From NCBI GenBank assembly GCA_041664165.1, contig JBAYLH010000001.1:73469-137468 (forward strand): a stretch of 64,000 nt of DNA, in the 5' to 3' direction. The position numbers and the translations under genes were made by a program. Shown here piece by piece: positions 39,621 to 62,100 of this stretch (positions are counted from its first letter, which is position 1; each line of letters starts with the position of its first letter). Under the pieces are notes generated by a model that saw only the letters and a list, made by a program, of their open reading frames with translations, had not been told where the DNA came from and made no database searches. Source of the DNA: Candidatus Buchananbacteria bacterium. GTDB taxonomy: Bacteria > Patescibacteriota > Patescibacteriia > Buchananbacterales > UBA6539.

Positions 39621-41960
39621 TTAGCCGCATTTAGAAAAACCGCAAGACCGGCACTTGAGACAGCCTTCCGCAATCTCTAGGATATTGCCACATTCCGGGC
39701 ATTCCGGCGCTTCGCCGTAATCAGCAATGGTGCGCTTAATATTCAAGCCGTTGCCATTTTTGGCGGCTGGCACCGCTTTATTCATTGAATCTTTGGAAAC
39801 ATGGCTGCCGTTATGAAATTCCAAGCCTAAGGCCGGCTGGTTTTGCGTGATATGGCGTTCTAAAATCTGGGCAATCGCGTCAGGCAGCGATAAAATCATG
39901 CCGCCTTCGCTCCACGACGGCATCGGCCCGCGAATGCCTTTGATTTGTTTGATAACCTCTTCCGGCGGAATTCCGGCCCGCAAAGCCAAAGAAATTAAGC
40001 GGCAGACCGCTTCCGATTTGGCCGAGAAAAATCCGCCCGCTTTACCGATGGTGGCAAAAACCTCAAACGGCCGACCGGTTTCATCGTCATTAATCGTAAC
40101 GTATAAATCGCCGTAAGAAGTATTGATCTTATAAGTCGTGCCTCGCATCGCCATTGGCCGTTCCCGCTTATAAAAAGGCTTGGCCGCGGCTTCTTCTTTG
40201 GGCTTGGCCGCGGTGCCGGCGGTTAAAACTTGAACGTCGCGGCTGCCGTCGCGATAAATCGTTATCCCCTTGCAGCCGGTTTCATAAGCCAAAAGGTAAG
40301 CCTTGGCAATATCTTCCACCGTCGCGCTGTGCGGAAAATTAATGGTTTTCGAAACCGCGTTATCGATATATTTTTGAAAAATACTCTGCATCCGGATATG
40401 CCATTCCGGGCTGATATCATGAGCCGTCACAAAAATTCTTTTGACTTCGTCGGGCACTTCGGAAAATTCATTGATCGAACCGGCTTTAGAAATTTTTTCC
40501 ATCAATTCTTTGGAATAAAAACCCCTTTCTTTGGCAATAGCTTCAAAATAAGGATTAACTTCCATTAATTCAACCCAGTCGTCACCTTTGCGGCCGATAT
40601 GAGACTTGCGGATATAGGCTAGGGCAAAAAGCGGCTCGATGCCGGAAGAACAAGAAGCAATAATGCTTAAAGTGCCGGTTGGCGCAATGGTCGTCCGGGT
40701 CGCGTTTCTAATTCCCTGGCTTTCCGGCGTATCGTAAATACTGCCTTCAAAATTGGGAAAAACGCCTTTTTCTTTGGCTAAAGCAATGGAAGTAACGTCA
40801 GCGGTGTCTTTGATAAATTTCATCACTTTTTCCGCCAAATTGATCGCTTCGGAAGAATTGTAAGCAATACCCAAATCAACCAGCAGGTCGGCCCAGCCCA
40901 TCACGCCCAGCCCGATTTTGCGGTTGCTGCGAGTCATGTCGGCAATCTCTTTGATCGGGTACTGATTCATGTCGATGACATCATCGAGGAACCGAACAGC
41001 GGTTTTAACCACTTCGCCGAGCCTCTCCCAGTCAATTTTTCCTTCGTTAATGAATTTGGCCAGATTAATCGAGCCTAAATTGCAGGATTCATACGGTAAC
41101 AGCGGCTGTTCACCGCAAGGATTGGTGCTTTCAATGGCGCCGACATGAGGCGTTGGATTAAGCTTGTTAATCGAATCAATAAAAACCACGCCGGGATCGC
41201 CATTTTTCCAGGCATGGTTGACGATTTTATCCCAAACTTCCTTAGCTTTCAATTTTTTCGCCACCTGGCCGTCATGCGGATTAATCAATTCATATTCATC
41301 GTCTTTATCCAAAGCCTGCATGAATTTATCAGTGATGGCCACGGACAAATTGAAATTATTAAGCTTATCGCTTTGCTCTTTGGCGGAAATAAAAGCTAAA
41401 ATATCGGGATGATCAACCCGTAAAATTCCCATGTTGGCCCCGCGGCGAGTTCCGCCCTGCTTAATCGTTTCCGTGGCGGCGTCAAAAACCGTCATGAAAG
41501 AAATCGGACCGGAAGCTAAGCCGCTGGTTGACCGCACCGGGTCTTTCGCCGGCCGGAGCCGGGAAAAAGAAAAACCCGTGCCGCCGCCGGATTTATGAAT
41601 CAAAGCCGTATTTTTAATCGCGCCGAAAATTCCTTCCATTGAGTCGTCAACCGGCAAAACAAAGCAGGCGGAAAGCTGGCCGAGTTTGGTGCCGGCGCCG
41701 GAAAACGTCGGGCTGTTGGGCAAAAACTCCAAATTTACCATGATTTCCAAAAAAGCCCGCTCTAATTCCTCTTTTTTCTCTTTAGAAACGCTAGTGTATT
41801 TATCCTCAGCTTTAATAATGTAACCGGAAACCCGCTTGAACATCTCCATCGGCTTTTCCACCACCTTGCCTTCGTCATCTTTCAAAAGATAACGGCTTTC
41901 CAGCACTTTTAAAGCATTTTTAGTTAATTTTAATTTTGGTTCACCAATGCCTAAAATCAT
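39621..41960 (-). CDS. nrdJ: Adenosylcobalamin-dependent ribonucleoside-diphosphate reductase (class II, NrdJ)
   Basis: 779 aa with RNR class II core motifs and a C-terminal CPECGN...[13 protein letters not shown] zinc-ribbon tail. Confidence 0.88.
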
Positions 41961-42171
41961 AAAAATTCAATATTTTAACCGCTTTTTAAGCGAACAAAAA
42001 ATAAGACATAGTCTTGCCTTATTTAAAATTTTAAAACCAGCCGCCTCTTTTTATTTTTTCCGCTTTTATTTTTTCCGCCGGTAGGCGGGCTTTTTATTTG
42101 GCTTTTATATTTTACTTTTAAATTTTATTTTTGTCTAATTTCTTGCCTTGACTCCTCTATTTCGGCCGCTA

Positions 42172-42320
42172 TTTCATCTTTTTCCGAATGAAGGCGGGCC
42201 TGCCCCGCCGAAATCCACTAAACTTCACTTACTTCATCTTTTTCCGAATGAAGGCGGGCTTACCGCGCCGAAATCCACTAAAACTTCAATTACTTCATCT
42301 TTTTCCGAATGAAGGCGGGA
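42172..42320. repeat. Tandem ~61-bp repeat (2.5 copies) spanning the ftsZ 3' end
   Basis: The unit TTCATCTTTTTCCGAATGAAGGCGGGC-N-CGCCGAAATCCACTAAA(A)CTTCA-TTAC occurs at 42172, 42233 and 42294. Each copy encodes PAFIRKKMK-stop on the minus strand. Confidence 0.85.
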
Positions 42321-43456
42321 ATTTCCAATTCCTCTTCTTCCGCGGATTTTTCCGGCTCTTTGACAAAAAGCTTTCGAACCGGTTTTTTCGAAATTCGGGC
42401 AACATCGCTTAGCTCTTCTTTCTGAGTCTGAGTTTCGATAAAGTCGCTGGGAACATAGGCTGACTCGCGGTTTCTCACGACATCAGAAGCCACTTTATTT
42501 TCCCGCTCCGAAAAGCCGGTCGCAATCACGGTAATTTTAACCTCATCTTTCATCTCATCATCAATCACTGCTCCAAAAATTATTTTAGCGCCGGAATCGG
42601 CGGATTGGGTAATGATTTTGGCGGCTTCGTTGACTTCATGCATCCCTAAAGACGGTCCGCCGACAATGGTAAACAAAATTCCCTTGGCTCCGTCGATAGA
42701 AAGCTCAAGCAAGGGGCTAGAAATCGCCTGTTTGGCCGCCTGGGTCGCCCGGTTATCGCCGCTGCCTTGGCCAATACCCATCAAAGCCGAACCGGTTTCT
42801 TTCATAATCGCCTTAACATCGGCAAAATCAACATTAATCAAGCCGGGAACCGTAATAATTTCAGCAATCCCCTGGACTCCCTGGCGTAAAACGTCATCAC
42901 AAATTTTAAAAGCTTCCAAAAGCGAAGTTTTTTTATCAATAATTTGCAGCAGCCGGTCGTTAGGAATAGTAATAATCGCATCGACTTTATCTTTAAGTTC
43001 GCGCAAACCGGCTTCGGCAATTTCCCGGCGCTGAGCGCCTTCAAAAGTAAAAGGCTTGGTCACGACCGCCACGGTTAGCGCGCCCATTTCTTTGCCCAGC
43101 TGAGCGACAATCGGCGCGGCGCCAGTCCCGGTTCCGCCGCCTAAGCCGCAAGTAACAAAAACCATGTCAGCGCCTTTAATCAAATCCCTGATTTCATTTT
43201 GATTTTCTTCGGCGGATTTGGCGCCGACTTCCGGATCCATACCTGCGCCTAAGCCGCGGGTGGTCGTTTTGCCAATATGCAATTTAGTGTTGGCCTGAGA
43301 ATGATGCAAGGCCTGAACGTCAGTATTAATGGCTAGAAAATCAACGCCCTTAATTTTTGAGCGGACCATCCGATTAATCGCCGAGCCGCCGGAGCCGCCA
43401 ACGCCAACCACTTTAATTTTAGCAAAAGTTTCTATTTCTGGTTTAATTTCGGCCAT
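42290..43456 (-). CDS. ftsZ: Cell division protein FtsZ
   Basis: [13 protein letters not shown] tubulin signature, and the conserved C-terminal IPAFIRKK tail. Confidence 0.95.
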
Positions 43457-43459
43457 AGA

Positions 43460-44713
43460 TTAAGGAATTATCTTTTTAAACCACTTCTTAGTTTGTTTAG
43501 TAACGCCTTTAAAATTAGAAAAATAATTTAATAGTTTGCCAAAGCCTTTCTTTCCCCGGCTGCTTTGGAGCTGGCTGCCCCAAATGACCAAGCCAATGGC
43601 CGTCGAAAAAGACGGATCATTAACTTTATCAATCGCACTGGTGATATTCAACGGCCGGCCGATGCTGGCTGGCAGCCGCAATTTGCTTTTGGCGGCTTCG
43701 GTTAAATTATTGAGCTTGGCGCCGCCGCCGGTTAGGACTACGCCTGCGGGTAGCTTACCACTTTTATCAACCTTTTTCAATTCAGCATCGATCTTTTCAA
43801 AAATTTCTTCCACCCGGGCTTCCGTGATTTCGGCGACATATTTCCGGGAGACAAAATTGCTCTCCGAGCCTTCCAATTCGCCGATATCAATTTCGTCTTT
43901 TTTGCCGATATTTTGGGAAAAAGCCGTGCCGTATTCCAATTTTATTTTTTCCGCCGTGTCGATAGGAATTCTTAAACCAATAGCGATGTCTGACGTAATA
44001 TGGTCGGAACCGACCGGCAAAACTGCCGTGTGTAAAATATCTCCTTCTTCAAAAACCGCCAGGCTGGTGGTTGAACCGCCGATATTAATCACCGCAACGC
44101 CGAGCTCTTTTTGCCGGTTAGTTACCACGGCTTCTGACGTGGCTAAAACCGATAAAACCAAATCTTCAATATTGACGCTGGTGCGGTAAATCGCTTTGGT
44201 TAAATTTTTAATCTGGGAACTTAAGCCCTGAATAATCTGGGTATCGACTTCCAGTCTGACGCCGGTCATCCCTAGCGGATCTTTAATGCCGATTTGCCCG
44301 TCAACGGTAAAACTTTTTGGAATAACGTGTAAAATTTCATAATTAGGCGGCGTGGCCACGGTTCGGGCAGCTTCAATTGAACGCTCAATGTCATCTTCGG
44401 AAATTTCTCCGTCCGAGCGGGCAACGGCAATCACGCCCCGGCTTTCCTGAGAAATGATATGACTGCCGGAAATTCCGACCCAGGCATTTTGAACCGGAAC
44501 GCCGACCATTCTTTCGGCTTTTTCCAGACAGGCTGAAATCGAAGAAACCGCATCTTCAATGCTGCTGATGATGCCTTTGCTAATGCCGTCGGCCGGCACT
44601 TCGGCCGCGGCGATAATATGGATTTTTTCCAAATCGCCGACGCTTTGGCCGACAGCCAGCCGAATCGTATTTGAGCCGATATCTAAACCGGTGATTAATT
44701 CTTGTTCTGCCAT
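43460..44713 (-). CDS. ftsA: Cell division protein FtsA
   Basis: Actin-like ATPase fold motifs (GLDIGS, DIGGGTT). It lies immediately upstream of ftsZ. Confidence 0.9.
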   Translation of the reverse strand: MAEQELITGLDIGSNTIRLAVGQSVGDLEKIHIIAAAEVPADGISKGIISSIEDAVSSISACLEKAERMVGVPVQNAWVGISGSHIISQESRGVIAVARSDGEISEDDIERSIEAARTVATPPNYEILHVIPKSFTVDGQIGIKDPLGMTGVRLEVDTQIIQGLSSQIKNLTKAIYRTSVNIEDLVLSVLATSEAVVTNRQKELGVAVINIGGSTTSLAVFEEGDILHTAVLPVGSDHITSDIAIGLRIPIDTAEKIKLEYGTAFSQNIGKKDEIDIGELEGSESNFVSRKYVAEITEARVEEIFEKIDAELKKVDKSGKLPAGVVLTGGGAKLNNLTEAAKSKLRLPASIGRPLNITSAIDKVNDPSFSTAIGLVIWGSQLQSSRGKKGFGKLLNYFSNFKGVTKQTKKWFKKIIP

Positions 44714-47154: not shown

Positions 47155-50100
47155 TTAATGGGTAAATTTATAACGGCAAAACGTATGGCTGCTAGTATAT
47201 CCCGGAGTAACCGGACCGGCCCAAATTGTTCTGGGCTGCCAGCCGACATTGGAATATTTTGGCAAGTATAATCGGTTAAAAATCTGCTGAGTGGCGCCGG
47301 CGGCATAACTTATCCCCCAGGAACTGTCGTCAAAACCAACTCCTTTCCAATCCCCTATGCCCAGCGGTTCGGCGCTAATATCGGAATTTTCAATTAACCA
47401 GCAAGTAACCGGAAACGGCAAATCAGAGGCGCTATGGCCGAACGACGAAAGAGTCCGATTGGGTCCGGAAATAGCAGTACAAAGGCCGCTGTCCAAAAAA
47501 TTAGCAATCGCCCCTCGAACTTCCCGAGTCGTGCTCGGCGCCATGCGGTGATAAGCTTCAATGGCAATGACGTTTTGGCCGGACAAGAGATAATCATTAA
47601 GATTAAACAAAACGCCGCCTTTGCTTGAATCGCTTTGATTGGGCTGATTTTGGGAAGCCAAAGTCTGATCCGGAGTAATCGGCACCGCCGTCGGATTATA
47701 GGCCGGATCGGTCGGCAAATATAAATTACCCGTTACCAAGCGGCCGTTGATATAAACATTAAAATAATCTTGAGCACCGAAAATCGCCAAACAACTGTTG
47801 GTAGCATTACAGCTGCCGCCCTGGCAGGTATCATAGGTTACGGTGCTACCGGTGCCACAAATCCAACCATTGGTTTTACTGCCGGTATGCGAAGAACCGG
47901 AGGTACAGCCAACGGCGCAAATATTATCGCCGTCAAAATCATTATCCGGATCATAAGGGCAAAAATCCATATTGTCGCACAAGCCGTCTTTGTCCGCATT
48001 GGCGCAGGAAACGCAAACGCCGGAATTGTCGCAGACACAGCTATTGCCGGTACAACCGACATTATCATCGCGGCACTGATCAGCGCCATTAGTATCCGGC
48101 TGAAAACCGGTAATTTGGTTACATTGATAATTCGTGCCGCTCAAAGCCGTACATTGCTGACATTTCGGACAAGGATCGGTTGACGGTACGACGCAGTTAT
48201 AAACATTCCCCTGCTGGCTACAAGTCGCACACGAACCACAGCTGCCGCCGGACTGGCAGGCATAAGTCGTGCCGTTGCACAAACCGCAGCTGCCGCAGAC
48301 ATTATTATCGGGAGTATATTGGCAAATCTTACTGGCCGAACAAGTGGCAATGGCACAAACGCCCGGCAAAGAACAATCGTTGGCGTTTTGGCAGCAGGTT
48401 CCGCCTGACCCGGGCTGACCGGCACAAACCGGATTAGCGCAGCTTTTATTGCAATCGATATTAAAATTAGCCGTCACTTTCAGGCCGCCGATAGTCGTCA
48501 TCGGCAAACTGCAGTCATTAGTGGTACCGGCGCAAATTCCCGTTGGCACGCCGGCAAAAGTAGTAACATACCAGCCGGTAAACTTGGAATCGGCAATGGC
48601 GGCAGCCGCGTGTAAAGTAACATTATCCCCGTAGTTATAAGCATAAGAACAAGTGCTGCCGCAATTAAGATGAGTATCGGCGGAAGTAACTGTCCCGGTA
48701 CCCGTGCCAGTTTTATAAATATTCAAAGGCGTACTCAGAGTTGAAAAATTGGCCGTTACCGTCGTATTACCGGTAATTACAATATCGCAAGGATTGGCCG
48801 TAGTACAGCCGCCGCCGACCCAGCTGCTAAAGCTGTAGCCAGTACTGGCGATCGCCGTTAAATTGATATGAGTTCCGGAGGTAATATTACTTTGGCTGCA
48901 AACCGTGTTGCCCTGGCCGCAATTGATTAATCCGCCCAAAATCAAAACCTGGCCGGCGGCTAGCGGATTAGTTACCGTCAAAGTAAAGGTCGGCTGCACT
49001 CCGGTCGTGCTGGTGAAAGTATCGGAAACCCCGCCGATGGTTAAAACCGTATTGGTCTGGGTACTGTAAGCAGCGGCAGAAGTCTGGCGGACTTTGACTG
49101 TGTCGCCGTTATTAATACTGCCCGCCACCGTTGTCCAGCTGCCCGCGCCAACCTGGTATTGCCCGCCCGTGATGCTAATTGGCGCTGGCGCGTTGATGCC
49201 GGAAACGGTTATGGCGTTGGAGGTCATGACGGTGCTGAGAGCGACATTGGTTTGGTCAGTGAAGGTAAAAGCATCAGGCGCGGTATCGGCAGCCACAAAA
49301 GTCGCGGCCACGGTTTTAACCGCATCCAAAGTAACGTTGCAAACGCCGGTGCCAGCGCACGCTCCGGACCAGCCGGTAAAAATAAAGCCAGCCGCCGGAT
49401 AAGCCGTTAAAACAATACTGGTTCCGGCCGGATAAGCGTGAGAACAAGTGCTGCCGCAATCAATGGTCTGAGGAGCATCGCTGGAAGTAATTGAATTACT
49501 GCCAGTCGGCGGCGTTACCGTCAAAGTAAAGGTCGGCTGCACTCCGGTCGTGCTGGTGAAAGTATCAAAAACCCCGCCAATAATTAAAACCGTATTGGTC
49601 TGGGTACTGTAAGCAGCGGCAGAAGTCTGACGAACTTTGACTGTGTCGCCGTTATTAATACTGCCCGCCGCCGTTGTCCAGCTGCCCGCGCCAACCTGGT
49701 ATTGCCCGCCCGTGATGCTGATTGGCGATGGCGCGTTGATGCCGGAAACGGTTATGGCGTTGGAAGTCATAACGGTACTGAGAGCGACATTGGTTTGGTC
49801 AGTGAAGGTAAAAGCATCAGGCGCGGTATCGGCTCCGGGCGGAACACAGCTGCCCGAAGCATTGCAAAAATTCGGGGGCAGACATTGACCCGGGCCGGAA
49901 GTATCTTCATCGGTATAATGATTTAAAATTGAACAGGTGTCGTTAGCCGTGCCGCTACAGACATGACAGGCGGCGGTACACTCCGTATCATCGTTAACCG
50001 CTCGAGCGCCGCAAACGCCGCCGACCACGCAGGAACTGCACGAGCCGGTGCAGCCGACTCCTTCGTCGGAAACCCGAGGCCGGCACTGGTAATCATTAGG

Positions 50101-53100
50101 CAAAGCCGAACCAAAATCAGCCGGCGCCAAACAGCGCTCGCAAGTGTTGCAATAAGCCGCGCTATCGGCATCAGAATTAAAACTGCCGTCCCAGCAGCAT
50201 TTAGAGCCAGCCGGGCCGGTTTGGCCTTTACAGGCGAAGTCCGCACAGTCAGCAAAGCCATTGCCGTCTTCGTCGCCAGGCGTATTACAAATTTCAACCG
50301 CGGCCGGACAGTCGCTGTCAGTGGCGTTATTACAGCCGAGACCGCAGCAGCTATTCCCGGACTGACAGCCGCAGTCGGGATCATCACTGGCCGCACAGCC
50401 GGCCGGACAATTACCGTTACAGCCATTAGGCGTACAGGTAACAGCGCAGTCGCTGTCTAAGGCGTCAGTTTGGCCGTCGCAGTCATTATCCAAACCATCT
50501 AAGCAATGGCCGGCTTCCGAAACATAATGGCCGGAAATAGTTGAGTAGTCACAGCCCGGCCATTGACCCAAGATAGAACAAGTTTCTTTGGCTCCGGCGC
50601 AAACTCCCTGCTGGTTAGAGCAATCCCGTTTGGCTCCGGCAGTACAAGCCGGCGCCGCCGTTGAAGCCGTGCAATACTGGTCAATCCAGGTCGGCGAACC
50701 TAAAATTTTTGGCGTCATCGCCACGGTAAAATCAGCCGGCTTGGTTTCTTTGGCTAATTTGACCGGCTGGCTAAGCGGCTGGTTGAAAAAATTTGCCAGC
50801 CTGGCAATTGTGGTTTTTAAAAATGAAAAGATTCCCTTAATCCCATTACTATCCTGGACTAAATTGGTTGGCGCGGCCACTCTCGGCGGCGGTATCGGCG
50901 TGCAGGAAGGCGGAACCGAAGGGAAAGAAGAACAGTAGTTAAATTCAAAACTATTAAAGGTTACGACCACCCCGGCGGGTAAATCTCTGACGGCAAAACC
51001 ATGAGCCGCAGCGGCACAAAAATTAGTCGGCAAATTGAGATCCACTGTAAAATCAGCACCCGAGGCACCGCCGGCTCTGATACTGTCATAATCAAAATTT
51101 AAGCCTTGCTCCGGCGTAGTCAGCGTACCGCTAATATCAACCGTGAATTTCACGTCCAAGGCCTGCTTAATTTTATTAATAATATCAGTATATAAGAGTG
51201 GCAAATTGCTTGAATTATCATCCGGCTTGAGATAACAATAATGAGCATTATCACAGCCAGGAACCGGGGTTAAAGTCGTATTGGAAGATAATAAATTCAT
51301 TTCGTTGACCGTACCGAAAGCGGCTGAATAAATGGTAATGCCATTATTTTTAGCCAAATCGGCATCGCTGTCTATCGCTGGTGTATTGTTCGGATAAACA
51401 GCAGAGCAGGAAAAATCATATCTATCCTCACCACAAGGCCAGCAAAGCTGCCAACCACCAAAATTGCATGTTTGAGCTGTAGTGTGACAACCATTAGGAA
51501 TAGCACTTTCGCAATAATTAAGTTTGGTGTCAGCTTCGCCATCACTCATCACTATCATAATTTTATTAGGCGAGCCTGAGCCTGTTAGCATCTGAGTTGC
51601 CTTTATAACCGCGGCGCTAGTATTGGTGCCGCCAATAGTTGCATAACTATTAATAACCCCGTGCAAGTTCCCTTCGTTCCGGCTAAAGTTATAAGAATTT
51701 ACAATTGAATTTGTACGGCCGATAGCATCATAAGTTAAACCAAAGCTCACCAGGCCAACTTTAATATTATAATCAGAATTAGAGAGCAGATTAGTCACTG
51801 CCATCCGTAAAGCAGTTAGCAAGGCAAGGTTGGGGTCACAGCTTTGAGGCTCGCTGGAGTTGATGCCATTGCAGGCCTCATTCATACTGACTGACAAATC
51901 AGTTACCAAAACAACCGCGGTTTCCGGTGCCGCATCGGATCGTCTAATATTTAAATGCGCTTTGACTTTATTTTCCGAAATCTGGCAAAGCGGCGAAGTC
52001 AAAGTGCTGGTTTGAGCCGGAGGAAAAGAAAGATTGGCCAGGGTTACCCCGCCATGGCCGGTGTAATTACTGGCCGTACATTGCCACTTGCAATTAGCCG
52101 TACACTCCGCGCCAAAATTGTCAGTTCCATAATCGCATTCTTCCGCCGAACCGCCGCCAGTATCAATTTGGCAATTGCCGCAATATAAGCCGCCCACGGT
52201 TACAATTTTGCAGGTATTATCGCAATACTGGCAGCTGCCGTTATAAGCCGGGTTGCAAGGCACGCCGTTTGACGCCGCACCAACGCATACGCCGGCCGGG
52301 TTGGTACTGTCAATCGGATTAGTCCCTCTATAGACAGCACTTTTGCAATCGCAGTTTTCCCAAGGCTGATTATCATCCGGCCCTTTTTCAATAATCCCGT
52401 TGCCGCAAGCCCCGCCGGTTTCCGTTACCACTTTTGAACAATTATTGGCGCACCATTGGCATGAAGCTAAAGTGTTAGGGTCATCGCTTTGGGTCGGATT
52501 GCACCGCTCGTTATTTTTGGTCGACCAGGGCCGCTTGACCAGCGAAGCATTATCGCCGGCATCGCAGACTTCCGAAGCGATAACCAGGCCGTCGCCGCAG
52601 CGAGCCGGCTGATCGCAGATATCGCCGATGTTATTATGGTTATAATCAGTCTGGCTGGAATTGCTGCAGGAAATCTGGATGCCAAAATTGTCCTTGCAAA
52701 CCGGTCCGTAAGGCCCGCCCGGACAGTTGTCTAAATCCGTAATTTTCGGCCGGATTTCAAAACCGACAAAACCGACATTGGCATCGCAGTTAACCGTAAA
52801 GGAGCCGGGAACCGGACAGCCAGTACTACATCGGCACCAATCGTTTAACCAATTAAACTTAATGGCATGAGAGCCGGCGGCCAACTGGCCTAAAGATATT
52901 ATCCCCTCCTGAGGATGACTAATATCAAAAGGATAATTAATAATTTTATCCGACCTGGCTTGGCCGTCAATTTCAACTTGAATTTTAAAGCCATTATAAT
53001 TTTTCTCCGCGTCAAATCTGGTCGGATCTAATTCAATTCGGCTGGCCAAATCAGCGCCCGTGCCGAAACCGACGGCATTGTAGGTTTTAACTTTAACAAA

Positions 53101-56100
53101 ATACTCACCGGCGATACTGACGGTAAAATTATGATCCCCGCCTAAGGCGCCTGGGTTCTGATAGGTTTGATTGACCGAGACGTTAGCAATCGCGTAATCA
53201 AACTCTTCAAAACTGCCGGCATTGCCCTGGCAGCCCTGAAAATGCTCTTTTTGGCCGAGCGTTAAGTTGGCCGTGCTGACTGGAGTGGAAGTATTGGTAT
53301 AAAAAGAATAATCGCCCAAACCGTCTTTATCAAAATCCAAACATTGATCGCAGATATAACCGATATTATCATTGTCGTAATCTTCCTGGTAAGGATTGTA
53401 GCTGGCAAAATCGCCAAAACCGTTGCCGCAATAACCGGTGTCGTTGCAATTCCGATCAGCACTGCTGTTAACTCCCCCGCTCCGGCAAGGCTTGCTGGCA
53501 GCTGGCTTGCCATTGGCATCTTTACAATAAAAATTATGGTCAGAGGAAATCCAGGTAGCCAGACCGCTGGTTTGATAATTGGTAAACGGCGGGCAGTTGT
53601 CTTTGGGGCAGACATTAATATCGTTAGCGCCGGTATCAATATCCCAAAAACCATCGCTATCCAAATCAGTGCAGGGGTCGCAAACATCGCCGAGATGATC
53701 GCTGTCGGAATCGGCCTGGTCGCGATTAGCAACCGTCGGACAATTATCTTGTTGGTCGCAAATGCCGTCGTAATCGGAATCACCCGAACAACCGGTATCA
53801 CAGACATTGCCTGTCCCGTTGCCATTACTGTCTTGCTGATCAGGGTTATAACAATTTGCCGGATTGCCGCATAACCGACCCGGACAATTATCTTTGCCGG
53901 CGATTATTCCCGAGCCGATGCCGTCGCAAACGCCATCGCTATCGGTGTCGCCGCCCTGAGCGCTGCAGTCAACGACATTAGCCGCTGGATTCAAATTCGT
54001 CTGGTGGATTTCAAAATTTAATCTTTGACAAGCCGCCGGCAACGGGTATTGGCCGGTCGCCCAAGTGCCTGGGTTAGTGTATTCAAAATTACTATATAAT
54101 CCGTAATCCAAGCCGCTATTAGCCGAACCGTAAGCATAAACAAACATCTGCTGCGGACAGGCGAAAGTTTTGCTGATTTCATCCCAGCAGGTTTTTTCCT
54201 GATCCGGATCCGCCGGCTGGCAGAGTATCGGCTGGTTGCCGCAGGCCGTTAAATTGCCTAAAACGCAAGCCGTTGTTTCGTCGCTTTCAATTTTACCGTT
54301 ACCGTTGCTATCGCAATAATAAGCCGTACAGCCGATAAACCGGTTAAGCGGATCGATAAATAAAGCTTTGCCGGTTTCCGCCGCTAAAGTCTGCTGCCAA
54401 GACGGCCAGACCGAAAATGTCGTACCGGAAATATAGCTGCCCGCCGATAAAACCGGATAACGGCCTTTGGTTGGGAAATAATTTTTGAAAACCAATTGCA
54501 TCTCCCGCAAATCAGCATAGCGTTTACTGTCGCGAACGACCTGCTCTTTTTCGGCGTCACAGCTTAAATTCGGGCAGTCAAAATTATTGGCGCAATAAAT
54601 CGGCTGGCAAATTTTAGCCTGGCAGGAATTAGTCACTTCCGACCAGAAACAGCCGAGTTCTTTAAGTTTGTCTTCGCAGGCGCTGATAGTTTGGTACGTA
54701 ACGCATTGGGAATGGTTAGACGTGCCGATTTCAATGCTGCCGGTTGCCGCGGCCGGACCGCAGACAAAGTCGGTCTCGGCATAACGGCCATAATCATCGC
54801 AAACCCGATAATTGCTGACATTGGTATTAAATGACCAAACGCCGTTTTGGCCGGTCGGATCCAAAAGCCGATTAAAGATTTCCTGCGTTTGGCTGCTGGC
54901 GTTTTGGCTGTAAGAAAGTAAATAAATATTAGAGTAAAGAGTAGTCGCGCTGACACCTCGGTCCAAATTCGTGGCACCGACATAAATCGTCCGGCCGTCA
55001 CGAATCGCCTGGTAGCCGTCGGTTTTAATTTCCTGCGGCGAGCCGACTGTCGGAACATTCATCTGGCAGCGCCCGTAAAGCTGCAAGTCATCAATATCAA
55101 CCGTGCTGCTGCCGGCCTGGCGCAGCCGGACATAAAACTGAACCTTCGTCGGCGTGGTTAAAGTAAAATTGCAAGCAACCGGCTGCCAGGTAGCTGGCGT
55201 ATTGCCGCTGGCACATTTAGCGCCGGTTTTTCCGGAAATCAAACAATTAGGCGTATTGTCGCAGAGGCTCTGCCAATTCCCGGCCGTAACTTCCTTTTCG
55301 GCGCCGACAACAACTTCGGCTTCTGATTTGACATAAGCCGTATAAGAGTAACTGCCGGCCGAAAGAGTCAAAGCGGATTTAACCGGATCATTGCGTAATT
55401 GTCCCCAGCCGGTAGTACCGCTAGTTACGGCTAGCCGAGCGGCTCGGCCAGTCCGGCCGGCGTCAGAAACCGCCGTCAAACCGGCGGCAAAATTACCGCT
55501 AAGCTGCAAATTCCAAGACCAAGTGGCCGGAGTGTCTTGCTCAAAATTGCCATTGGCGAACAGGTTATTATTTTTACAATCCGTATCTTTGAAGCAAAGC
55601 TGATCGAAATCACCCTGGCCGCCGCACAAACCCGACTGATACCAGGTTTTCGGCGACAAGTGCAAAGGGTTGGACAAAATCCGGATGCCTAAAGCGTCGC
55701 CGGTCGGCGCACCTTCCACTTTTAACAGCCTCAAGTTTTCAATTAATAAATTCGAATCTGGCACCGGAGTCAGTGAAGGATCAGACCAGTCGTTTCTCCA
55801 GGTAATAGTAACTGTATGACTGCCGCTGGCTAATTTACCGAGAAATAAGGTTCCGGTTTGGCTCGCCGTTGAAGCTAAATTATCGATATTACCTTTGGCG
55901 ACATTATCAACTTTAATTTCCAGCCGCTGGCTGACCGAAGCCAGACAAGTCCCGGTGCCGCAAGCATTAGCCGCACCCGGATTGCAAACTGTTTTTTCAC
56001 CGGCTCTTAGGATACCGTCATTATTTTCATCACAATAGGCAATGCTGGTTAAGTCATTGCCGAAGTTATGGGTTTTAATTTCCAAAGAATAATCGCCGGC

Positions 56101-59100
56101 CGTTACCGCCGCAAAATTGTAGCTCCAAACCGGAAGATTATTGTTGCCGTCGCCCAAACAATAAGAAAAATTTCCAAGCGTCGCCGGGCTGGGCGTTGGG
56201 TTGGGACAGCTAGTGCCGACGGAATATTCATTGCCATTTTTACTGCCGGCCGGGGTCTGGTTGCTCTCGCCGACTGGGAAAATAAAGTCTTTTAAGATGC
56301 CAAGCCGGGTACCTAAAACCGTGGGATTAACCGACAAGGCCGGCAAATCGTCATCCGTAGTATTTTCTTGGCCGGCATCGCGGCAATAGTACAATTTAAA
56401 ATGAGTATCTCTGCAGATGCCGGAAGTGCAGTTGCCTTGGTTATCCCGATAAACATCAGCTAGCGAAGGCCAGGGGTTATTGCAGATAAAATTAGTAACA
56501 TTAGCATCCTGAGAAGATTCCGACGTCAATCGGCACTGGGCCGTGGCCGCGCACTGATTAGCCAGCTGCGGATTGCAGAATTCGTTAGTATCGCTGCAAC
56601 GGTACTGGCCGCCGAAAACCCGGACAACCGCTTCGCCATTTATTCCCTTAGTTACCGGCGGCGCGACTAAGTTGCCGTTAGCGTCATGGTCTTGCCCTGG
56701 CGTAACCAAATTTTGATAATTATAATTATCAACAGCGCAAATACCGCCGGAGCACTCCGAATCAAGATTGCATTTTTTTGAATTATCAACCGAACAAACT
56801 TTGTCCGCGTAATCGCTTAAATAAATAATTCCTTTTTGATCATTAGCCGGATCAATCTCGGACCACTGAAAACCAACACCCGACGGACTGATCGGCGTTA
56901 TCGCCCCGACGATGGTGGTCAAATCATAGCACTGAGCCTGGTATAAATGCTGATTGCCGGCCAAAGCGTAATCAAAGTCATCGTCAAGCAGATTGGTTGG
57001 CGAATTCTTGCCGCAAAAATTGCCGGCGCAGGCGAATAAATCATTAATTGTCAGATTGCCGGCCGAAGTCGGTTTGACCAAAACCCCGACATAGTCGCAT
57101 TGGCAGAAATCTTCGCTGGTGCCAAAAGTCCAAACCGAAGTATAGTCTCCGGTTTGAGGCAATGAGTCAGCATCGCTAATAATATCTTTAACGCCGCTGA
57201 CGTCAACTTGGTAAGTGGCATTAGACTCTAAAAACCCGGAAGTTAAGCCGGTAACCGTCAGCCGGCTGCCCAAACAATCATTATCGGCCTGACAGCGGCT
57301 GTTGGTCAAAAGCCCGGCATCAGCCAGCGGATAAACACAACTATTTCTGACGCACTGGCCGGCCACGGTTTCATACAAATAAGACTTTACTAAATTGGGA
57401 TTAGTCCCGCAGGAATTTTTGCAGACTTTTAAACTATCTAAAATCGTACTTGGCTTTAAAGTTTTGGAAAATACCGCCCAAATGGCAACGTTGCGGCATT
57501 GATTGGCCGCGTTAATTTTCGGTTGATGGCCGATAACATAAAATGGCACTTCCGATCCGGCCACCACGGTCAATTCACCAACACCGGCAGTTTGGGGCTG
57601 TAGCGCGCTCCAGGCTAAAATTTCTTCCCTGGCTTGACTCAAGCGGGTCGGTAGCCGGTCAATCGTTTGAACAATTTGATAAGGATCCAAGCGGTTATCG
57701 GCAACCGTGGAGCTGTTAACGGTGCAATTTCGGCTGCAGCCGTCGGAAATACACTGGCCGCCAGTACCGCAAGGACTGCCGATGCTATTACAAGGATTAT
57801 TATCGGCAGAACAAAAGCCTTCGTAAGTAGTACAACCTGAGCCGGCCTTGCATTGTGAATAATTTAAACTGGTACAGCCGACCCATTGGTCAGCGCTATT
57901 TTGGCATAATCCCCCATCATCGCATTTTTCGCCGGTTTCTTTAAAGCCGTTGCCGCAAACCGATAAGCCCCAATTGTCATTGCCAATTACACCGTTCAAC
58001 GATCGAGGTTCGTAGCCGACGGGACAGCTGAGAGGGTTAGCGCCGTTGGTAAAATCAAAAACATTAGTTTGAACATTGCGGCAGATATTAAGATTTCGAT
58101 TCTCTAAAAGACAAGGCCGGGTGCCGCATTGATTGCCAGTCCAGTAGCAGAGGCCGGTATGGCAATTGGCTAAGTTCGAAAAATCGATTCTTTGGCAATC
58201 AACCTGGTTAACTGTTCCAGCCGGACTATAATTAATTCCCGTGCAGCCATCGCCGGAAGCGGGCTGGCCGCCGCGAGCCAAATCGCCGTTATCACATTCT
58301 TCGCCCAAACCGATCAGATTATCGCCGCAAAGCGCGTTAACGCCGGCAATTGAACCGGCAAAAGTACAAATATCCGTGCAGCCATCCGTATCATCGCCGT
58401 TAGGCTCGGTGCCGGTATCGCATTCTTCGCCGGTTTCGACAATGCCGTTGCCGCAGACTTCCTGATTATAATTGGTATTGCCAATTAGCAAACACCGCTC
58501 ATTACAATAATAATTTGTTGACAGCTTCATTATTTCCGATGGCGACAAAGCTCGGCTGTAAATTCTGATTTCATCCAAAGCCCCGGCTAGATTAGCGCCG
58601 GTTTGCCGGCCGCCAAAAGTCAATTTTTTGCCGACGGCTGAAATATCGCCGCCCCGCAAAGATGTCGGGTCAGTCTCGCCGACCAACCGGCCATCTAAAT
58701 AAGCTTTTAAGCCGCGGCCGCTGTCGCGGTTAACGGTAAAAGCGACGAAATGCCAGCCAGAAATCGCTAAATCAACCTGAGCCGAATTGACCATCCGGCT
58801 GCCGTCGCCAATTGCCAAATGAATTTTTTTATCGCTGTCGCTGACAATTTTAAACCCGGATTCGGCACCATTTTCCGCGCCCTTGCCTAAAAGCAGCTGA
58901 CCGGCCGCGCTGTCGATTCCGTTGACCCAAAAGGCCAGGGAAAAACCTCTGACTGCCAGCTGTAAATTTTGATTATCATTAACTTCAACGTAGCCGGTGG
59001 TGCCGTTAAAACTAATTCCTTGGCCGATTTTACCGCCGACAAAGCTAAGGCCGCCGAAACCGGCGCCATTATTTTGATTAATTAAATCATTGGCATTGCT

Positions 59101-62100
59101 TTCCAATGGATACCAGCCGATTAAGCCGGTTTTATTAAATTCGCATTCCTCGCCCGGTTCAATCCGGCTATTGCCACAGCAATTGCTGCCGGTCGCAACT
59201 AAACAAGTATTTTTGCCGGCCCATTTGCAAGTCAGCGAATCGCAGTCGGGCACCGACAGCCAGCCCGGATCGCAGTCTTCGCCTTTTTCCACCACGCCGT
59301 TGCCGCAGCCGTCTTTGAATGGCGTAACAAAATTAGCCGCCGTGACGCCATCCAAATCCCGTTTGTCCCAGCGCCAATCATAAGAATAAGGATTTAAACG
59401 CTGGCCCCGCGCGTCGCACTGATCCGATATTGACCAAGGCTGGGAGAAATACCGGTATTTAATTTCGCCTTCCGGCAGAGTTAATTTTTCCGGAATCACC
59501 TGAACATGATCTAGGGCGCATAAATTATTTTCCGGTTTGGTTTTAAATACCCAGGAATAGGCATTTTGCGTCCCGGCGACATAACTGGGCGCGGTAAAAT
59601 CTTCAAAATTCAAATAATCAAGCTGCTGCTTGCCGTCAGCCGTCGCCACTCCGTTTCTGACTACCACCCGATAAACCGTATTGGGAATTAAAGTCGGAAT
59701 CATCGGCGTTAACGGATTTTGGTCGTTATCAATCGGGTTGTAAGTTTGGGGCAAGCTAAGATCAAAAGTATCGGGCGCCGAATCGGCCGGATTAGAATGA
59801 GGAATAATAATCCGGGTGGTAACGGTAATGGCAATCGGCGTTTTGCCCGCGATATCGCAGATTTCGTCGCTGCCGCAGTCGTAAAGAAAAATATTATCAG
59901 GGTTTAAAGTAAGAGCATCGGCGTATTTATTAAACCGGCCGCCAATCGCCGCATTAATACAAGCCCAGTTGCAGTCCGGCCATTTCTCAACCAAGCCGAA
60001 AGCGCCGTCGGGCAAAAAGTTACCGACGGTTAAATGGCCCTGACCCAATGGCCCGCCAGTAGCCGGGGTATAATTTTTTAACCATGACTGGATATGAGTT
60101 TCGCCGTCGGCCAAAGTCATCACTAATTGATACGGCCCAACCGTCGGCGGATTATTCAATGGCGTATCCAAATAGGAACCGGCGTTGATGCATTTGTCAG
60201 TGCAGCCAAACTGATTTTGTGGCCTACAAGTGGCCGTCCAGGGATCAGCGCAATTATAAAGCGACTTAGTGGTGCAGTAATCGCCATTGTCGCTGCAAAT
60301 ACCGCCCAAGTCACACTCTTCGCCGGTTTCAACCAAACCATTGCCGCAAACCGAGCCGGAATTATTATTGCCCGGCACCGAGTTTAAAGGCAGACAATCA
60401 TAATTGGCCGGACAGCTCCCGCTGCCAGCGCATTCCCCTAGCCTAAAGTCGAATAAATTAGTTTTTTCAGAACGGCAGAAACCGTGGCTGCGGTCTTCAA
60501 TTAAACAACTGCTGCTGCAGCCGTCGCCGTCAACCGGCTTTCCCCCTAAAACCAATTCACTGCCGTCGCATTCCTCGCCTAAGCCGATCTGGCCGTCACC
60601 GCAGCGGGAACTGCCCAAAACCGAACCGGTATATAAACAAGTAGCGGAGCAGCCGGCGCCGGATGAGTCGCACTCTTCGGTTCTTTCAATTAAGCCGTTG
60701 CCGCAGACATCAAATTGGTTGCTGTTGCCTAAATCAGCATCATTTTCATCTAAACAATTATTATTGCACCCATCGCCGTTATTCAAATTACCGTCGTCGC
60801 AGTCTTCGCCGGTTTCAATGACGCCATTACCGCAGCCGTCCCGTAGCGGCGTGACTAAATCAGCCACGGTCGGCTGGCTTGACTGCCAGTCGAAGTCCCA
60901 AGTATAAGGATTAAGTCTTTGGCCGAAAACCGGATCGCAGCTGTCCGGCGCCGTCCGCGGCCTGGCGGCATAAAAAATATTAACCCCGATATCAGCGTGT
61001 TTCTCCGCCGGCGCGACGTCAATTTTTCCCGGCAGACACAAACCGTAATCAGTCTGGGTTTTGAAAATCCAGGAATATGAATCTTTTATCAAATCATTAT
61101 TTTGATCAAAATTTAATCCGGCCAAAGGCTTATGTTCGTTTTGACTTCTAACCTGGCTGTCAATAACGACTCGATAATAAGTATTAGGCACTAAGCAATA
61201 ATCGTCCTTGCCGTCGTTATTAAAATCATAGCAAGGCACGTAGCCGGTATAAGTGTTGGCCGCTTCCGCCGGATCCAATATCACGGAATTGGTAAAACTG
61301 GCAACGACTTCGGCCGCACTCAAATTGCAGCTTGGATCGTCGTAACAGATATAAAGCTTCATTTTGTCTTTGACTGAAAAGCCGGCGGTTTCATCCATGG
61401 CCTTGCTGAAAGTCGCCCCGATTTTGGCGTTCAAACAAGCCGTACCGCAGTTTGGGAAATGATCAATAACGTAAGGCGAGGAAAAATCAATATACAAATT
61501 GCCATGGCCAAAAACTGAAGGCAGGGGCGTAAGTTTACATTCCGCTTCAACTTTGGCAAAAGGATTAGGCGCGTCGTTGATGGTTTCGCCCAAAGCCGTG
61601 GCCTTGGCGGTATTGGCAATGGCTTTTTGTTCAACTGAAACTTTGGCTGGTTTATCCGTTCCCCAGCCCCAGCCGGCCGTACAGCTTTCCGGCCGAATAT
61701 CAACGCAATAATTATCTTCCGAAACCGGCTGAGCAAAATAATCATCGCGAATCGCACCGGCATAATATAAATAGGCAGTCGCCGGACTGACGGCCACGCA
61801 GCCGACCGTGCTTAATTCGTCGCTGTCTTTAGTTTTAAAAAGCCAGGCATAATGGCTTAAGCCGATATCGTTAGCCGCTAGCCGGACGCCGTTTCGGCCG
61901 AATATTTTGGCTGAGTCCAAATCAACTTTGTAATAAGTATTTTTTGCCAATAAACTATTAGGCACCAAGGTTAGCTGACCGGTATTTTGATCGTTATACC
62001 AGCCGTTATTGGCCGCGATAATCGTAAAAGCATTGGTTACGTCGGTATTGCAGTTTGCCGGGTCAGCACATTGATAAACTTTGACCGTGGCATCGGTTAA

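Follow-up and report, generated by a model that had tools for sequence, protein, structure and literature searches.

The cell-division gene ftsZ of a Candidatus Buchananbacteria bacterium is followed by an array in which the end of the gene, encoding the C-terminal peptide PAFIRKKMK and a stop codon, is present twice more; the array lies in a 64-kb stretch of DNA, analysed over its whole length of 64,000 nt and called the window below. The unit of the array, here termed the cassette, consists of three parts: 1) a core, GATTTCGGCGGGCAAG, 2) a GC-rich hairpin with the Pro-Ala codons of the tail as its 3' arm, and 3) the re-encoded FtsZ C-terminal peptide with its stop codon. Comparison of the ftsZ 3' end in relatives, proposed in an earlier note on this DNA, revealed a homologous cassette (core, second tail and stop) behind ftsZ in ~16 lineages from three deeply divergent groups of Patescibacteria: the Buchananbacteria, the Portnoybacteria and a third type (L086). 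That the cassette is a conserved homologous element is, on these sequences, hardly in doubt, and its second tail has probably been selected for the peptide that it encodes, now or until recently. The evidence is comparative and computational throughout, comes from ~16 lineages, and its statistics ignore phylogeny.

The array behind ftsZ and its relatives in other Patescibacteria

The array is the only tandem repeat scoring at least 80 across the 64-kb window. Tandem Repeats Finder placed it at 42173-42319, with a period of 60, 2.4 copies, 94% matches and a score of 259, and the 30-mer at the end of ftsZ, CCCGCCTTCATTCGGAAAAAGATGAAGTAA, was found to have three minus-strand matches in the window versus none in 100 shuffles. 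The earlier note's claim that the ftsZ tail is repeated twice more downstream is thereby confirmed. Of the three 61-bp units that it described, the period stands (60-61 nt), but only ~2.5 units are present, arranged on the minus strand as tail-spacer-tail-spacer-tail (30+31+30+30+30 nt). The features of the array are as follows:

42290-42319, minus strand: copy 1, the native ftsZ tail, CCC GCC TTC ATT CGG AAA AAG ATG AAG TAA, encoding PAFIRKKMK and stop (0 mismatches)
42259-42289, minus strand: proximal spacer, 31 nt, TTGAAGTTTTAGTGGATTTCGGCGCGGTAAG, which includes the family core GATTTCGGCG
42229-42258, minus strand: copy 2, the re-encoded tail with TAA, the same 30 nt as copy 1 (0 mismatches)
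42199-42228, minus strand: distal spacer (spacer 2), 30 nt, before copy 3
42169-42198, minus strand: copy 3, with 2 mismatches, AAG to AAA and TAA to TAG, lysine and stop being kept
42169-42228, minus strand: distal cassette (spacer 2 plus copy 3), a complete micro-open reading frame (micro-ORF) of 19 aa
42253-42269, minus strand: hairpin 1, GGCGCGG-UAAG-CCCGCC, 6 pairs and one bulged C; copy 2 supplies the 3' arm with its Pro-Ala codons
42193-42209, minus strand: hairpin 2, GGCGGG-GCAGG-CCCGCC, 6 perfect pairs; copy 3 supplies the 3' arm with its Pro-Ala codons

Homology also links the two spacers (26/31 positions, ~84%), and 4 substitutions and 1 indel within them set the units apart; the flanks before copy 1 and after copy 3 show no relation to the spacer. 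Each extra copy was also correctly said to carry a GC-rich hairpin, in which GGCG(C)GG or GGCGGG of the spacer pairs with CCCGCC of the next tail. The distal micro-ORF reads GTG AAG TTT AGT GGA TTT CGG CGG GGC AGG CCC GCC TTC ATT CGG AAA AAG ATG AAA TAG, its GTG start adjoining the TAA of copy 2 and being in frame with copy 3. The frame of copy 2 is +1 relative to ftsZ, with a TGA of its own frame at 42288-42286 and no start codon after it. The extra copies do keep the final lysine and the stop, as had been claimed, but the frame that each keeps is its own. The proximal spacer has a T run of TTTT, the distal one of TTT; minus the extra T, the proximal unit would read TAA-TTG-AAG-TTT-AGT-GGA..., a distal-type ORF starting directly 3' of the ftsZ stop. 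Without a start codon, and with the extra T putting it out of frame with the TTG behind the ftsZ stop, the proximal cassette is probably inactive.

Short tandem repeats are prone to misassembly, and the geometry of 30-nt repeats with 30-31-nt spacers is CRISPR-like, but an assembly artefact (repeat expansion) or a mini-CRISPR array is an exceedingly improbable explanation. An independent assembly, the JGI contig L001, encodes the same FtsZ protein and was found to differ from the window by 29 single-nucleotide polymorphisms (SNPs) over 7167 nt, all within ftsZ or the reductase gene downstream (39723-43133) and at mutual distances that are multiples of 3 nt. No SNP was observed in the 1.1 kb around the array, and the 329-nt intergenic region containing the array is without difference. 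Assembly expansion was excluded because the units differ by substitutions and an indel and because the same array is present on this SNP-bearing contig. A CRISPR array was ruled out as well: the spacers are homologous, the repeat is the coding end of ftsZ, the window contains no further copies of it, and the CRISPR-repeat models of Rfam gave nothing relevant. The copy-number variation among strains that had been envisaged was not seen between the two available assemblies (window and L001). A simple variable-number repeat produced by slippage was also rejected, the units being head to tail, but with the same copy number in two strains and with conservation of the unit across groups. Eleven of the 29 SNPs are bunched at 43067-43133, resembling a recombination tract.

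Relatives were sought at 80 ftsZ loci fetched from species-representative genomes. A regular expression at the peptide level detected a second perfect tail peptide in L001 and at no other locus, and a nucleotide-level search then revealed that L007, L008 and L018 have a diverged second tail, 32-33 nt past the ftsZ stop and behind a homologous spacer. A cassette profile run with nhmmer over the fetched loci found no members in the 80 genome loci besides these three. Metagenome contigs were scanned for an ftsZ tail followed by GATTTCGG within 8-30 nt, leaving the second tail unconstrained, and yielded 14 loci that represent nine distinct lineages. Among Portnoybacteria FtsZ loci sampled blind, the cassette is present in L096, L098, L108 and L109 and absent from L100, L102 and L107. 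None was found in viral contigs.

FtsZ identity between Buchananbacteria-like and Portnoybacteria bearers is 54-59%, that of L086 to both is ~60%, and that between groups overall is 54-63%; the rest of the intergenic DNA is unalignable between groups. Bearing and lacking lineages are interleaved, and the element is therefore old or mobile, and often lost. The closest sampled relatives of the window (L002, L104, L105 and L106; FtsZ 81-82% identical) have no cassette. Spacers diverge quickly, as seen in L083, L093 and L109, whose FtsZ proteins are 92-93% identical and whose spacer lengths and hairpins differ. A general genomic motif was considered for GATTTCGG and rejected: it has 10 matches versus 3.7 expected in the window, and the other eight stand without hairpin or tail and have an ordinary coding look.

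Some bearers show additional structures in the same region. An extra hairpin, CGTCGC...GCGACG, lies between GATTTCGG and GCGGGCAAG in L098 (2644-2740), L093 (9413-9510) and L083 (locus minus strand). It is found in L098, is absent from L087 (FtsZ 90% identical) and is present in L093 (77% identical), a pattern that suggests exchange of the ftsZ 3' flank between lineages. In L095 (319-380) a second GATTTCGG core lies 16 nt past the stop of the copy and is directly followed by a terminator-like hairpin, and in L108 (2426-2475) a remnant, GGTAAGCCCGC-AAAAAAAGA, was observed behind the copy.

Constraint on the second tail, origin of the array and RNA structure

The consensus cassette is GATTTCGGCGGGCAAG-CCCGCCTTYATHMGNAARAARATGAARTRR. 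Ten copies encode an intact tail, (P/S)AFIRKKMK with stop, and lie 0-8 nt apart from the ftsZ tail of their own genome; counted by codon, these differences are 47 synonymous and 1 non-synonymous. Neutral simulations were performed per lineage, with the ftsZ tail accepting synonymous changes only and the copy free to change, and gave P = 0.0002-0.015 for the individual lineages when the copy received its neutral share of the changes, rising to P = 0.04 at most, for L008, at a 50% share. The tail is perfectly intact in 7 of the 12 lineages that were found without a condition on the second tail. Variable nucleotides in the ten intact copies number 2/1/9 at codon positions 1/2/3, the Arg codon alternates among CGG, CGA, CGC, AGG and AGA, and TAA, TAG or TGA occupies one fixed position in all of them. 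Similarity between lineages ends at the cassette stop codon. Pro follows a K or R residue (AAG, AGG or CGG), which in turn follows G or A.

Gene conversion from the ftsZ tail was rejected by argument as the cause of this pattern, since it would erase synonymous and non-synonymous differences alike; moreover, differences of 4-8 in 30 nt leave little homology, and selection via recombinant ftsZ alleles would be too weak. Capture of a foreign ftsZ 3' end was excluded, since what stands before every copy is the conserved core and not a run of FtsZ linker codons. The earlier note's suggestion that the array serves recombinational variation of the FtsZ tail found no support, the tail peptide being invariant in all copies and relatives.

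How did the additional unit arise in this genome? From a pre-existing tail-spacer-tail, the observed array is a single step away, namely slippage or unequal exchange involving the 30-nt tail repeats. The duplication (or homogenisation) is read from the sequence as recent in this genome because the three tails are near-identical, and the extra cassette copy here is likely to stem from a slipped-strand or unequal-recombination event. The slipped-strand duplication suggested before can thus be retained as a likely origin of the extra copy, but not of the cassette, which is old and common to distant Patescibacteria. Traces of an extra unit elsewhere (L095 and L108) resemble the additional unit here, and duplication of the cassette in this particular lineage explains the three-copy array better than a mutational oddity would. 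A neutral, functionless and recent slipped-strand duplication of the ftsZ 3' end would agree with the near-identical units here (tails 0 and 2 nt apart), with a proximal unit that has no usable ORF, with the lack of a cassette in the closest sampled relatives (the four loci named above) and with an element that is often lost or decayed. As an account of the cassette as a whole, however, it is improbable: the homologous spacer and tail recur in lineages whose FtsZ proteins are only 54-63% identical and whose other intergenic DNA is unalignable, the 47 synonymous versus 1 non-synonymous differences are incompatible with neutral decay, and gene conversion gives no synonymous-only pattern. Neutral duplication is plausible only for the last step here, from one cassette to two.

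A structured RNA in the ftsZ 3' untranslated region (UTR), acting as a leaky terminator, attenuator or stabilising hairpin, is a rather unlikely alternative to peptide selection, in which the tail-like sequence would be kept since CCCGCC-UUYAUU forms a descending arm and U-tract, and not for translation. In its favour, the core GATTTCGGCGGGCAAG is conserved at the nucleotide level irrespective of reading frame, and pairing of GGCGGG with CCCGCC holds in 91% of cells, the hairpin also appearing in most predicted folds of single sequences. A change of TTC to TTT makes the tract U-richer in the copies of 9 of 12 lineages, and in L108 the terminator scan rated the hairpin plus TTTATTCGCA as terminator-like. 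In addition, the Pro-Ala codons of ftsZ itself are CCCGCC in 12/16 bearing versus 7/21 lacking lineages (Fisher P = 0.02, phylogeny-uncorrected), a bias that gene conversion with the copy might explain, as might alternative pairing to GGCGGG of the spacer.

Nevertheless, no covariation beyond chance was detected, the observed score being reached by 221 of 500 shuffles. The fold of the 3' UTR, suggested as a check, does contain predicted hairpins, but its z-scores mostly lack significance: the whole array gave -1.25 and single units ranged from +0.2 to -2.6, the hairpin 2 unit folding at -19.3 kcal/mol with z = -2.6. A conserved RNA family of the Rfam type was rejected, as no Rfam match came near the gathering score and covariation did not exceed that of shuffles. 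The outer stem UUUCGG/UCGGAA predicted by RNAalifold is broken in the lineages with AGG or AGA for Arg. A GC stem with a U-run was found by the terminator scan in the cassette of L108 only; in the window array the stem is followed by UUCAUUCGG, and the scan calls no terminator there. Like intrinsic terminators and other 3' UTR hairpins, the cassette has a GC-rich hairpin ~20 nt past the stop and, in some lineages, a U-rich tract. Unlike in the case of these elements, its conservation runs 24 nt beyond the hairpin, with codon periodicity and a fixed stop, and clear terminator hairpins are located further downstream at several loci. A hairpin or terminator leaves the third-position-only variation over RKKMK, the switches between CGN and AGR and the fixed stop unexplained, and a purely structural role, such as that of the 3' UTR array put forward in the earlier note, does not account for this codon-type conservation. 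Structured RNA could coexist with translation; the frame-independent conservation of the core and the CCCGCC bias keep an RNA role alive as a minor possibility, perhaps beside translation.

Expression and possible function of the cassette

The commonest layout of the cassette is NTG-ATT-TCG-GCG-GGC-AAG-CCC.... Among the standard-frame lineages, 7 of 9 have ATG, GTG or TTG at codon -6 or -3 relative to Pro, and the other two have ATT at -5; the -6 start lies 9-15 nt past the ftsZ stop. In the frameshifted lineages, the spacer has an insertion of 1 nt or contains a second hairpin, and the FRRGK... frame results. Spacers measure 30-73 nt, and the frame of the cassette relative to ftsZ is 0, +1 or +2 by lineage. 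Ordinary read-through or frameshift extension of FtsZ was ruled out because of these variable frames and of the in-frame stops that intervene in several lineages. Where the 3' region is long enough to judge, a hairpin and T run was observed downstream of the cassette (in the sequences and as some scan matches), and because such terminator-like hairpins lie 3' of it, the cassette appears to be part of the ftsZ transcript. The closeness of the -6 start to the ftsZ stop, together with the absence of a Shine-Dalgarno sequence in most cassettes, suggests initiation by termination-reinitiation coupling rather than independent initiation.

Decoding without a start codon was considered as a further explanation. 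In this improbable reading, ribosomes would bypass or slide over the hairpin gap behind ftsZ and resume at the G-K/R-P codons, making either a free tail peptide (9-11-mer) or FtsZ isoforms that carry two tails in tandem, and in this genome as many as three. Such decoding would account for the intact, synonymously diverged copies without an in-frame start (L098, L109, L008 and the proximal unit here) and for intact copies in all three frames relative to ftsZ, all of which only a frame-independent mechanism covers. The last ftsZ codon is Lys, followed by the stop, and in most cassettes CCC comes right behind AAG, likewise a Lys codon. The hairpin-filled gap of 30-73 nt superficially resembles that of T4 gene 60, in which a stop lies behind the last decoded codon, the structured gap spans tens of nt and coding resumes irrespective of frame. 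Translational bypassing is, however, extremely rare in nature. Unlike T4 gene 60, the cassettes show no evidence of matched take-off and landing codons in all members, of a nascent-peptide signal or of a joining of the two parts, and no known bypass signals were identified. AGG or CGG stands before Pro in three intact copies (the distal unit here, L095 and L109), as would be expected of a conserved basic residue more than of a landing codon; codon -6 of the standard frame is enriched for NTG; and TAA-TTG-AAG-TTT-TAG directly 3' of ftsZ here would trap a short hop. The intact start-less copies raise the question of non-canonical initiation or re-initiation, and start-independent decoding, if true, would be a bacterial case of post-termination re-initiation or bypassing that sets the valency of a cytoskeletal protein.

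What might a free FtsZ tail do? In the mechanism proposed here, a micro-ORF of ~11-19 codons would be co-transcribed with ftsZ and translated, probably by coupling or re-initiation shortly past the ftsZ stop. The released peptide would compete with polymer-borne tails for FtsA, or would bind the FtsZ core. With a single transcript giving both FtsZ and the peptide, the latter would serve as a built-in decoy that buffers or delays the tethering of FtsZ and hence Z-ring attachment. This full model, a translated cassette giving a free FtsZ tail peptide that competes for FtsA, is the favoured reading and is about as likely as not to be right.

The conserved C-terminal peptide (CTP) of FtsZ is the docking motif for FtsA, ZipA, SepF, MinC and others, and the complex of Thermotoga maritima FtsA with the FtsZ peptide is reportedly PDB 4A2A. 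The cassette encodes the tail motif of its own host, P-x-F-[IL]-R-K/R-K, identical to that of the FtsZ tail PAFIRKKMK, with ftsA adjacent. The cassette peptide would be expected to bind FtsA subdomain 2B or another CTP partner, and the adjacent gene encodes a bona fide FtsA. Unlike in FtsZ, the motif would stand alone on a product of ~11-19 residues, would follow G-K/R where FtsZ has the acidic linker end E/D-L/W-E/D-I, and would be monovalent, in contrast to the multivalent display on FtsZ polymers. Free fragments of the extreme C-terminus of E. coli FtsZ have been shown to inhibit division in vivo, and E. coli FtsZ C-terminal fragments were predicted to bind FtsA subdomain 2B and FtsZ itself (PMC11831152, which also cites a fragment scan). 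A free tail peptide is proposed as a monovalent competitor because the CTP docks FtsA and because these free fragments inhibit division. The parallel lies in a free FtsZ C-terminus acting in trans on the divisome; the E. coli fragments, however, are engineered and 30 residues long, whereas the cassette product would be natural, conserved, chromosomal and co-transcribed with ftsZ. If the model is true, the cassette would be the natural counterpart of these engineered inhibitory fragments and would exemplify a bacterial microProtein principle, with a partial duplicate as the decoy.

MciZ, SulA, lambda Kil and SidA/DidA are small Z-ring regulators that bind a core divisome protein. They are likewise short polypeptides that modulate division, but they are unrelated to FtsZ in sequence, have their genes at other loci and act for the most part on the FtsZ polymerisation domain or on late proteins. 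The cassette, by contrast, lies in the ftsZ 3' region and partially duplicates an interaction motif of FtsZ itself. Eukaryotic microProteins (LITTLE ZIPPER and Id proteins) are partial copies of interaction modules that act as competitive or dominant-negative regulators. These are encoded at separate loci, whereas the cassette is a bacterial tandem partial duplication, apparently coupled translationally to its parent gene. A second free-standing FtsZ tail, a small ORF of this kind behind ftsZ or a natural CTP decoy was not found reported for any bacterium in the searchable full-text literature.

Several observations weigh against a selected and translated peptide acting in this way. The element is patchy, occurring in 3 of ~83 Buchananbacteria-like loci and in 4 of the 7 Portnoybacteria loci sampled, and its decay in L018, L093 and L096 marks it as dispensable. 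No ATG, GTG or TTG follows the last in-frame stop in the intact copies of L008, L098 and L109 or in the proximal unit here; L090 and L095 have ATT only and L086 has ATA only; and a convincing Shine-Dalgarno sequence was seen in the cassette of L108 alone. The core is conserved at the nucleotide level in either frame (ISAGK versus FRRGK), so that the constraint is partly not on the peptide. The extra tails here are 0 and 2 nt off the ftsZ tail, which makes selection unassessable within this genome alone. Finally, the acidic D/E-I before P in FtsZ is missing from the cassette peptide, whose affinity for FtsA is thus putative.

If the cassette is translated, some Patescibacteria would encode a free FtsZ-FtsA tether motif on the ftsZ transcript as a built-in competitor. 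This would provide a testable handle on the tuning of Z-ring attachment in minimal, mostly uncultivated cells with few division proteins. More generally, selected coding sequences of ~11-19 codons can hide in an annotated 3' UTR.

Neighbouring genes and other features of the ftsZ region

The genes around the array are as follows:

42290-43456, minus strand: ftsZ, 388 aa, from the ORF list, with Pfam Tubulin and FtsZ_C on an identical protein
43460-44713, minus strand: ftsA, 417 aa, directly upstream of ftsZ, with Pfam SHS2_FTSA/FtsA
39621-41960, minus strand: class II-type ribonucleotide reductase, the next gene downstream, outside the element

The ftsZ homologues carry the name FtsZ of Candidatus Buchananbacteria, and the next-nearest FtsZ cluster in a collection of 5.8 billion proteins is only 82% identical. 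The FtsA of the window has matches among solved structures of FtsA, one of them to the T. maritima sequence of 1e4f/4a2a/4a2b.

Between ftsZ and the reductase gene, an AU-rich hairpin, AATAAGGCA-N(5-10)-TGTCTTATTTTT, lies at ~41995-42024 of the window (minus strand). It is also found in L003, L004, L005, L007, L008, L009, L012, L013, L019, L104 and L105, and its pattern matches 15 fetched loci. In the loci with a located reductase start it lies 29-101 nt upstream of that start. The stem is retained and the loop is variable, the version of L019 being AATAAGACA..GGTCTTATT. This hairpin might terminate the operon or serve the reductase gene as a leader element. A sigma-70-like promoter match, TAGACA-17-TAAAAT, was observed upstream of the reductase gene at 42109-42137 (minus strand), and a plus-strand terminator-like hairpin, TCCGCCGGTAGGCGGG plus CTTTTTATTT, lies at 42074-42089, with no upstream plus-strand gene evident.

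In the Portnoybacteria loci with called genes (L096, L098, L100, L102 and L107), the next gene behind ftsZ is of the nrdD type. NrdR-box-like palindromes (e.g. CCACAATATATTGTGG) were seen in the raw sequence 3' of the cassette in L095 (~460-480) and L090. Elsewhere in the window, a giant ORF of at least 5613 aa extends over 47155-63996 (minus strand) and begins near the window's upper end; on L001, two smaller neighbour proteins (237 and 324 aa), which are not the giant ORF, show weak matches to TSP3_bac repeats.

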